Source: Candidatus Heimdallarchaeota archaeon (lineage in GTDB: Archaea; Asgardarchaeota; Heimdallarchaeia; Heimdallarchaeales; Heimdallarchaeaceae). From it: a stretch of DNA of 64,000 bases. The position numbers and the translations under genes are program-made. Position 1 is the first letter of the stretch; each line of letters opens with the position of its first letter. The stretch lies in assembly GCA_018238545.1 (NCBI GenBank), contig JABCTC010000001.1, forward strand, positions 1 to 64,000, given 5' to 3'. Under the pieces are notes generated by a model. It worked only from the letters and a program-made list of their open reading frames with translations. It was not told the origin of the DNA and did not search any database. Positions 47,107-47,749 of the stretch are shown here, piece by piece.

Positions 47107-47427
47107 TTACTTTGATGAGAATCTCCCACAGATTTTGCTCTTTATTTCTTCACAAACTATCTTTTTCTTTTCCTTCTTTAGCTTGAATAATTTGCGAACA
47201 ATAATACTTTTGCCAACTGTGAACAAATAATTTGTTTTAATTATACTCTCTCTTACAGCTCCTTCATCAACAGATAAACTAATACCTTGCATTTTCAGAT
47301 TGCTCGTAATCCCTGCTACTATGCTATTGTCGTGCTCCTCAAAAAGAACAAGAGCAGGTCTTCTCTTTGCAATACTTTGATCAGTGAATGTAATCTCTGT
47401 TAGAATAACATCCCCAAAATCATACAT
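47107..47427 (-). CDS. mazF: PemK/MazF-family toxin
   Basis: GDVILTEITFTDQSIAKRRPALVL...AGITSN; the ATG at 47427 overlaps the upstream stop. Confidence 0.88.
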   Translation of the reverse strand: MYDFGDVILTEITFTDQSIAKRRPALVLFEEHDNSIVAGITSNLKMQGISLSVDEGAVRESIIKTNYLFTVGKSIIVRKLFKLKKEKKKIVCEEIKSKICGRFSSK

Positions 47428-47749
47428 CGTTCCATACTTCGTCTTCTTCATTATCCCAGAGTTCATTCATCTTTTCTTGTTGAGTTGAATCAAGATTAAA
47501 TAGATTATCTACTTTCACAGTTTCTTCATTCGAATTAATCGCAACAATCTCATCAGGAAAAGATTCTTCTTCAGGAATAAGTAGTTCCTTTGTTTTGATA
47601 GTTTCATCAGCTTGAGCAATCCTCTTCTTTTCATCTTCAGAAAGGTAATCCTCTTCTACAAGTAGTAATAATAGTTCCTCGATTCGATTAATCTTCTTCT
47701 CAAGTGAAGAGATTTTATTGACTATAAGCTCTATTTTATCACTAATCAT
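47420..47749 (-). CDS. Chimeric antitoxin-like protein upstream of mazF
   Basis: Probable start MISDK at 47749. The N-terminal part matches 44238..44438, the middle matches the tail of 45738..45929, and it ends ELWDNEEDEVWNDV. Confidence 0.7.
   Translation of the reverse strand: MISDKIELIVNKISSLEKKINRIEELLLLLVEEDYLSEDEKKRIAQADETIKTKELLIPEEESFPDEIVAINSNEETVKVDNLFNLDSTQQEKMNELWDNEEDEVWNDV

Follow-up and report, generated by a model that had tools for sequence, protein, structure and literature searches.

A mosaic antitoxin made of three antitoxin families in front of a mazF gene in a Heimdallarchaeota genome

Directly in front of an intact PemK/MazF toxin gene on contig JABCTC010000001.1 of a Candidatus Heimdallarchaeota archaeon (assembly GCA_018238545.1; the first 64,000 nucleotides (nt) of the contig, taken whole, are the window analyzed here), one small protein carries parts of three different antitoxin families, one after the other. 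The protein, P0001, is the product of a 109-codon open reading frame (ORF) on the minus strand that runs from an ATG at 47749 to a stop at 47420-47422, and sequence comparison confirms that its 109 amino acids (aa) are a real patchwork of three consecutive segments: a head, a middle, and a tail, each from its own antitoxin family. What might such a protein do, and how did it come to be put together? We think it probable that P0001 is a working antitoxin of the MazF whose gene it overlaps, a natural mosaic made by recombination in a hotspot of toxin-antitoxin cassettes, in which the tail would neutralize the toxin, the head would dimerize, and the middle would be a relic that serves as a spacer.

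Type II antitoxins are thought to evolve by the joining of short, disordered toxin-binding motifs to swappable scaffolds, and this idea comes mostly from domain architectures and engineered fusions. The locus described here is a clear natural case, with donor families, canonical form, and hotspot all to be found in sister genomes and with a second mosaic that differs in its middle. It also adds to the sparse knowledge of toxin-antitoxin systems in Asgard archaea.

The three segments and the toxin gene

An earlier sequence-only reading of this DNA had described three parts in one open frame, and that description stands: the ORF at 47420-47749 (minus strand) is open over all 109 codons. The segments, the DNA in front of them, and the toxin gene behind them are these:

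47750..47819, minus strand: 5' region inherited with the head, containing a conserved A/T-rich box with the TATA-like ATTAAATA at 47778-47785 (-36 to -29 from the ATG)
47582..47749, minus strand: head, codons 1-56, belonging to the 63-aa A-type RelE/ParE antitoxin family and lacking that family's last 7 residues
47495..47581, minus strand: middle, codons 57-85 (the match begins at codon 55), related to positions 28-58 of 62, the C-terminal half, in an aRelB-like family of antitoxins
47423..47488, minus strand: tail, codons 88-109, a predicted acidic, two-tryptophan MazF-binding tail with the core ELWDNEEDEVW, common to the 72-aa MazE of the clade
47107..47451, minus strand: intact PemK/MazF toxin gene (Pfam PF02452), with its start at 47451 as in relatives; the frame is open from an ATG farther upstream, at 47466, as well

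The frame of P0001 can be lengthened to a TTG at 47848, but this extension is unsupported, and we disfavor it because the ATG at 47749 lines up with the starts of the related gene family and has a conserved, promoter-like box just 5' of it. Searches of Pfam and NCBIfam with the whole protein found no domains. With single sequences, the match of the middle is marginal on the scale of the genome (expectation value (E) 0.01-0.04 among 14,185 ORFs of at least 40 aa), and we therefore built profiles, solely from the proteins of other genomes, and searched them against those same 14,185 ORFs.

For the head, the earlier reading had named the right relative, the antitoxin at 44238-44438 (P0002), and had overstated the likeness in calling the two nearly identical: over residues 1-56, 37 of 56 positions are identical (66%) and 49 of 56 are similar (BLASTP E 1e-9). 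The A-type profile, made from 10 other genomes, finds the head with 77.2 bits and E 6e-22 at profile positions 1-56 of 63. The match does not run the full length of the family; it stops at position 56, and the conserved Leu-x-x-Val end (among the seven missing residues are one Val that is invariant in the family and one Leu that is nearly so) is absent from P0001. Measured against A-types, nonsynonymous divergence (dN) is 0.17-0.25, and synonymous divergence (dS) is 0.8 to >3, which is to say that it reaches saturation.

The head is predicted to be two helices, the first of them leucine-zipper-like. AlphaFold2 (AF2), run on a mixed alignment, places helices at residues 2-30 (predicted local distance difference test (pLDDT) score 80-91) and 38-56 (pLDDT 70-76) in a model whose overall predicted template modeling score is 0.30, and the top look-alikes of the head in a sequence search of the PDB are GCN4 zipper chains. 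Positions of the zipper core are common to the head and P0002. In this predicted N-terminal zipper-like helix without a globular core, P0001 shares a trait of antitoxins of the aRelB type. What it does not have is an N-terminal DNA-binding and dimerization domain of the AbrB/SpoVT or ribbon-helix-helix (RHH) kind: Pfam searches of P0001 gave no match to VAPB_antitox (PF02697) or DUF7557, and the profile of canonical MazE matches its tail alone.

The head also brought along the DNA in front of it. Similarity to the A-type cassettes of relatives spans 47585-47819, that is, codons 1-55 and about 70 nt on their 5' side, and it ends upstream at 47813-47819. In an alignment of upstream regions, a single box stands at the same distance from the ATG in P0001 and in 11 A-type antitoxin genes; since its position is common to all of the A-type genes, we take the head to have come with its own promoter. 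The transcript is probably leaderless or nearly so. P0001 and mazF overlap by 32 nt, and there is no space for a separate mazF promoter.

For the middle, some 30 residues had been said to match the tail of the antitoxin at 45738..45929 (P0003), and the profile bears this out. In a direct comparison, residues 55-84 of P0001 and 28-58 of P0003 are identical at 16 of 31 positions (pairwise BLASTP E 8e-6). The aRelB-like profile, made from three other genomes (G002, G003, and G004; labels beginning with G, C, and L are our handles for genomes, contigs, and loci) without P0003, finds residues 55-85, which fall on its positions 28-58 of 62, with 33.9 bits and E 1.6e-8; among unrelated ORFs, the best reaches E 0.13, which places the match beyond chance. 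The A-type profile gives 0.7 bits on the same residues, and we thus reject the idea that the middle is an internal duplication of the head's second helix. At the DNA level, the middle is 69.7% identical to 45754-45842 over 89 nt (blastn). It is the most diverged of the three segments (42-55% identity, dN 0.3-0.5), and the AF2 scores (pLDDT 44-58 for residues 57-86) suggest that it is disordered.

The tail had been recognized beforehand as an acidic, tryptophan-bearing tail of the kind that goes with PemK/MazF toxins, overlapping mazF, and here the profile agrees: canonical MazE from seven other genomes matches residues ~88-109 with 33.3 bits and E 3.4e-8. The two Trp are nine residues apart, and the tail ends in Glu-Val-Trp; the MazE of Escherichia coli has a tail much like this one. 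AF2 models a short helix at residues 88-98. Of the 22 tail residues, 17 are identical to those in G024 and in G025 and 15 to those in G014, with dN 0.17-0.21 and dS >1, giving dN/dS of about 0.1-0.16. No further ORF among the genome's 14,185 matches the canonical-MazE profile (the assembly is 92% complete), and P0001 is therefore the sole carrier of the tail in an assembly without a canonical MazE. A database search with the tail region alone returned only the query, a consequence of the limit of the word index.

Behind the tail, the toxin gene matches PF02452 (PemK_toxin) with E 3.4e-7 and 30.9 bits, above a cut-off of 23.1, and its protein is 76-78% identical to MazF of G014, G024, and G025, with dN/dS of about 0.1. 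The 32-nt overlap with P0001 is identical in those three genomes, and DNA similarity to their canonical mazEF cassettes begins at 47476-47483 and covers 47105-47483, from codon ~89 of P0001 through mazF; in other words, the tail has stayed with its toxin. A sequence search of the PDB with MazF gave no matches. P0001 has, then, the marks of a MazEF antitoxin in its operon position 5' of a PemK/MazF gene and in its homologous C-terminal tail.

A cassette hotspot, its neighbors, and its relatives

P0001 and mazF are one of six two-gene toxin-antitoxin-like modules in an island of 4.6 kb (43972-48546). In window order, the modules are an A-type relBE pair, a DUF5678-like protein with a retropepsin-like protease, an aRelB-like antitoxin with a dead toxin, HepT-MNT, the mosaic mazEF, and hicBA. 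The features of the island that matter most here are these:

44238..44438, minus strand: neighbor antitoxin P0002, an A-type like the head but not its donor; its RelE/ParE toxin is at 43972-44238
45738..45929, minus strand: neighbor aRelB-like antitoxin P0003, of the same family as the middle; its partner toxin is dead
45479..45740, minus strand: aRelE-type toxin pseudogene paired with P0003, with one frameshift near codon 8 and two in-frame stops
44537-44552, 46015-46032, 47023-47038, and 48525-48541, plus strand: boundary motif CAACCTCC-N3-7-TTGA; the copy at 47023 lies downstream of mazF

On the far side of the island stands a conserved gene for a 386-aa protein (48555-49715), and what follows this gene differs from genome to genome: canonical mazEF and then A-type relBE in G014, vapBC and canonical mazEF in G024, and an A-type antitoxin in G021. 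Different cassettes after the same gene in congeners are what make us call the locus a recombination hotspot, and in G014, this hotspot places canonical mazEF and A-type relBE within 1.3 kb of each other. The boundary motif occurs four times in the window, where 0.01 copies would be expected, and all four are inside the island and in one orientation, the copy at 48525 lying just past the 3' end of the 386-aa gene. Related copies trail toxin-antitoxin cassettes in congeneric genomes, and the motif may be a common terminator that doubles as a recombination site.

Did the pieces of P0001 come from the antitoxins that now sit beside it? The sequence-only reading had supposed so, and on this point, it does not hold. 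In its DNA, the head is 75% identical to P0002 and the middle 70% identical to P0003, and divergence at synonymous sites is close to saturating; these distances are too great for recent copying from the two neighbors. The A-types of G014 and G021 are 84-85% identical to P0002, against 66-67% for the head, and in a tree, P0002 falls with those two in an orthologous A-type group that leaves the head outside; P0002 was thus not the head's donor. The broader suggestion, that P0001 is a record of in-frame recombination between cassettes, fares well, supported as it is by three family segments in series, a promoter that goes with the head, a tail that goes with mazF, and the hotspot itself.

As for the source families, A-type proteins are about 63 aa long, have a GCN4-like first helix, and are always found directly 5' of a RelE/ParE toxin of 88-93 aa. 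The aRelB-like proteins are 62-63 aa, and their intact partner in G003 matches aRelE (PDB 1wmi_A) over its full length with E 7.5e-10. Here, aRelB-like is a label for position, size, and partner rather than proven membership because neither profile significantly matches aRelB itself (1wmi_B: E 6.2 and 10 bits for the A-type profile and no match for that of the P0003 family). The pseudogene next to P0003, aligned with the intact ortholog in G003 (L022:1235-1501), is 85% identical over 81 codons, with two stops and with the first 8 codons in another frame (tblastn). No other copy of such a toxin is present in the assembly, and the decay leaves P0003 an orphan. The MazF clade was found in 10 of 82 genomes of the class, and in 8 of these 10, a MazE of 72-75 aa bearing a P0001-type tail lies upstream. 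In the form found in the genus, the MazE head gives weak matches to VAPB_antitox (PF02697; E 4e-5), DUF7557 (E 4e-4), and SeqA-N, which are RHH-like.

Signs of turnover are scattered through the same families and loci. The 72-aa MazE is kept in G002 (L015:1498-1716) and G017 (L016:1495-1713), where the clade's MazF was not found, and mazF of G003 (G003:C167:2819-3166) has an in-frame TAA. An A-type antitoxin in G021 (L050:5201-5401, on C53) is the immediate neighbor of the 386-aa gene's ortholog, lacks a downstream RelE ORF of at least 55 aa, and is probably another orphan in the hotspot. Beside MNT/HepT genes in G002 (L033 ~1530-1650, on C24), all that remains of one aRelB-like antitoxin is its C-terminal half, immediately preceded by a stop codon, from which we see that rearrangements leave gene halves behind. 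Distant A-type relatives in G034 (L017:1462-1776) and G040 (L020:1480-1710) are extended at the N-terminus by 20-45 residues rich in lysine, and RelE-like ORFs are not listed alongside; they may be DNA-binding zipper antitoxins, or they may have another function. The module at 44650-45446 (plus strand), a DUF5678-like small protein (a weak match) paired with a retropepsin-like aspartic protease (PF13975, E 3e-4, below cut-off), recurs among toxin-antitoxin cassettes in G025 (L049:2648-3461).

Relatives had been proposed as the place to look for the same fusion, and the survey did turn up a second mosaic of head and tail with another middle. P0006 (130 aa, E3J43_00735, from another Candidatus Heimdallarchaeota archaeon, a metagenome-assembled genome (MAG)) has a complete A-type head and a P0001-type tail, and between them, its residues 58-108 match a VapB antitoxin (PF02697) with 49% identity over 51 aa and E 2e-12. 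A tree unites the heads of the two mosaics with an ultrafast bootstrap (UFBoot) of 73, and the P0006 head is 75% identical to an ordinary A-type vs. 70% to the P0001 head. The two mosaics may have had one origin with a later replacement of the middle, or they may have had two independent origins. Scans of metagenome and genome contigs for the P0006 locus confirmed no relative. In G007 (L047:1001-2684, which is G007:C1:148600-150283), an orthologous MazF lies behind a 120-aa ORF with a P0001-type tail on an unrelated, partly low-complexity N-terminal part; this ORF overlaps the end of a gene for a ClpP-like, SDH-type serine protease (PF01972), in what may be a three-gene arrangement.

Beyond these, no head-plus-tail mosaics were found in the 82 genomes of the class, in 399 genomes of the phylum, or among 1.84 billion representative proteins, the last of which returned only A-types of the 63-aa class. 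A 126-aa frame in G023 was considered as a further mosaic and proved to be an ordinary VapB with an open upstream frame. A look-up in a protein atlas gave only low-scoring, unnamed archaeal clusters, and a search of the literature on natural multisegment, hybrid, or bifunctional protein antitoxins found no matching case.

What the mosaic may do and how it may have arisen

We can now put the pieces together. What is in hand is a mosaic ancestry, an intact and constrained MazF, a conserved tail and overlap, and an assembly with no other MazE. By analogy with the disordered tail of E. coli MazE (PMC4803016) and in keeping with the linear-neutralization model of Ernits et al. (PMC10440598), the acidic, two-tryptophan tail would be a linear motif that occupies and blocks the MazF dimer. 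The coiled-coil head would take over the dimerization that went with the lost RHH head, so that each antitoxin dimer would carry two tails and could bridge MazF dimers. Expression would be driven by the A-type promoter, and the middle would act as a flexible spacer that an intermediate fusion had left behind. The event or events behind all of this would have been illegitimate recombination or deletion in the cassette hotspot downstream of the conserved 386-aa gene, where loss of the front of mazE would be survivable only if the tail were still translated from some promoter. That both junctions are in frame would follow, for an active MazF would let only those rearrangements survive that stayed in frame and expressed the tail. 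If this is right, it suggests a rule: when a toxin is active, nearby deletions survive only if the neutralizing tail is translated, and addiction itself would select for in-frame mosaics.

Several points weigh against this account. Neutralization by the tail and dimerization by the head are things that we infer, and the pairing of P0006 with a MazF is deduced from its tail alone. The bootstrap value and the identities of the two mosaic heads do not fix the order or the number of the recombination events. All invariant A-type residues within positions 1-56 are retained in the P0001 head, and in the middle, 10 of the 14 positions on which all four members of its source family agree are unchanged (by our own count); binding by either segment may thus persist. 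Because the exact P0001 mosaic is a single known sequence, selection on its middle is poorly measurable.

The retained residues lead directly to the alternative that survives best, namely, that P0001 is multivalent. Its head would bind the A-type RelE toxins (the one at 43972-44238 and the copy on contig 103) or pair, through the zipper, with their antitoxins, its middle would bind aRelE types, and MazF would be left to the tail. In this way, a single protein would couple or buffer several toxin systems or would confer immunity to incoming cassettes of those types. The invariant residues of the head are kept not only in P0001 but in P0006 too, dN/dS of the head against A-types is well below 1, the zipper core is common to the head and P0002, and a promoter box common to the A-type operons would permit coregulation. 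Yet the head lacks the family's last 7 residues, with their invariant Val and nearly invariant Leu; the sole aRelE-type toxin in the assembly is a pseudogene; and the middle is both the most diverged segment and modeled as disordered. The argument from its kept positions is partly circular because those positions are part of what made the match detectable. In P0006, moreover, the middle comes from another family, which is tolerable for a spacer and probably not for a selected binding site. We judge neutralization of several toxins by P0001 to be the less likely reading and consider a multivalent protein of this kind unlikely, if still worth keeping in mind.

A little more doubtful in our estimation is the fuller form of the same idea, in which P0001 would be a hub. 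Its zipper head would pair with a resident A-type antitoxin or RelE, its middle with aRelE types, and its tail with MazF, such that the systems of the island would be coupled both physically and, in transcription, through the promoter box or the cell would be immunized in advance against cassettes of those families that arrive later. Were it true, a coupling of A-type relBE to mazEF through zipper heterodimers or a common promoter box would be the most interesting version that the data leave.

Might there be no mosaic at all, only a compositional likeness among helices rich in Glu and Leu or a middle that repeats the second helix of the head? Each of the three families is helical and acidic, a comparison of the A-type with the aRelB-like profile does give a weak alignment (hhalign E 0.0019, probability 14%), and a faint match of 4.6 bits links the second helix of the head to the aRelB-like profile. 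These hints are small beside the evidence on the other side: the profiles pick P0001 out of 14,185 ORFs of the same composition with seven orders of magnitude to the next match, the middle belongs to the aRelB-like and not the A-type profile by the bit scores given above, and all three parts have matches at the level of DNA. We regard this explanation as very improbable.

Least probable of all, and rejected, is an assembly chimera, in which reads from three paralogous antitoxin genes were wrongly joined: the genome is indeed a metagenome bin of 128 contigs with paralogous cassettes nearby, but P0001 with 151 nt upstream has no exact word of at least 20 nt elsewhere in the genome and its paralogs are 69-75% identical, which leaves an assembler without anything to misjoin, and in addition, the identical protein is recorded on three contigs (the longest of 152,976 bases), neither junction breaks the frame, the flanks show synteny with relatives, and a second mosaic exists in an independent MAG.

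Comparison with known systems

The favored reading, that of a recombined antitoxin working on its own MazF, sets P0001 beside several systems already described. The first is MazE/PemI of E. coli MazEF and Kis/Kid (PMC4803016), where the MazF2-MazE2-MazF2 architecture and the disordered MazF-binding tail of MazE are known. P0001 resembles these proteins in lying directly 5' of a PemK/MazF gene and overlapping it and in its acidic C-terminal tail, predicted to be disordered, and a dimeric N-terminal part would present two such tails. It differs in having no AbrB/SpoVT or RHH head; in its place are the coiled coil of a RelE antitoxin and a 30-residue stretch from a third family. The nearer relative is the clade's own canonical 72-aa MazE (L052:3719-3937, L051:1509-1727), with which P0001 shares the tail, the 32-nt overlap with an orthologous MazF, and the hotspot; the RHH-like head of that protein is gone from P0001 and has been replaced. 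Because the context and the tail are those of MazE and the AbrB or RHH head is absent, we regard P0001 as a variant MazE architecture and not as a standard member.

The second comparison is with aRelB of Pyrococcus horikoshii (PDB 1WMI chain B), the partner of aRelE, and its leucine zipper (PMC4803016). The families from which head and middle derive resemble it in their size (~63 aa), their zipper-like N-terminal helix, their lack of a classical DNA-binding fold, and their place ahead of RelE-family toxins. Their sequence similarity to aRelB is not significant (E 6.2 for one and none for the other), however, and P0001 is paired with MazF rather than RelE.

The third is with modular antitoxins, whose exchangeable, linear neutralizing elements swap partners by fusion or exchange, as in Panacea-Phd-C and the PAD1 fusions (Ernits et al. 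2023, PMC10440598). Like them, P0001 is a short, toxin-specific element on an unrelated scaffold. Unlike them, it has elements of three families in series within one small, natural Asgard protein, and its scaffold, instead of being a domain devoted to DNA binding or sensing, is taken from the chain with which another antitoxin wraps its toxin.

That antitoxins are modular and swap partners is already an established concept (PMC10440598), and P0001 is a natural example of the rebuilding of an antitoxin by recombination and not a new kind of system. The novelty is that one natural protein of an Asgard archaeon strings together segments of three antitoxin families and that its ancestral form and hotspot are visible in sister genomes.

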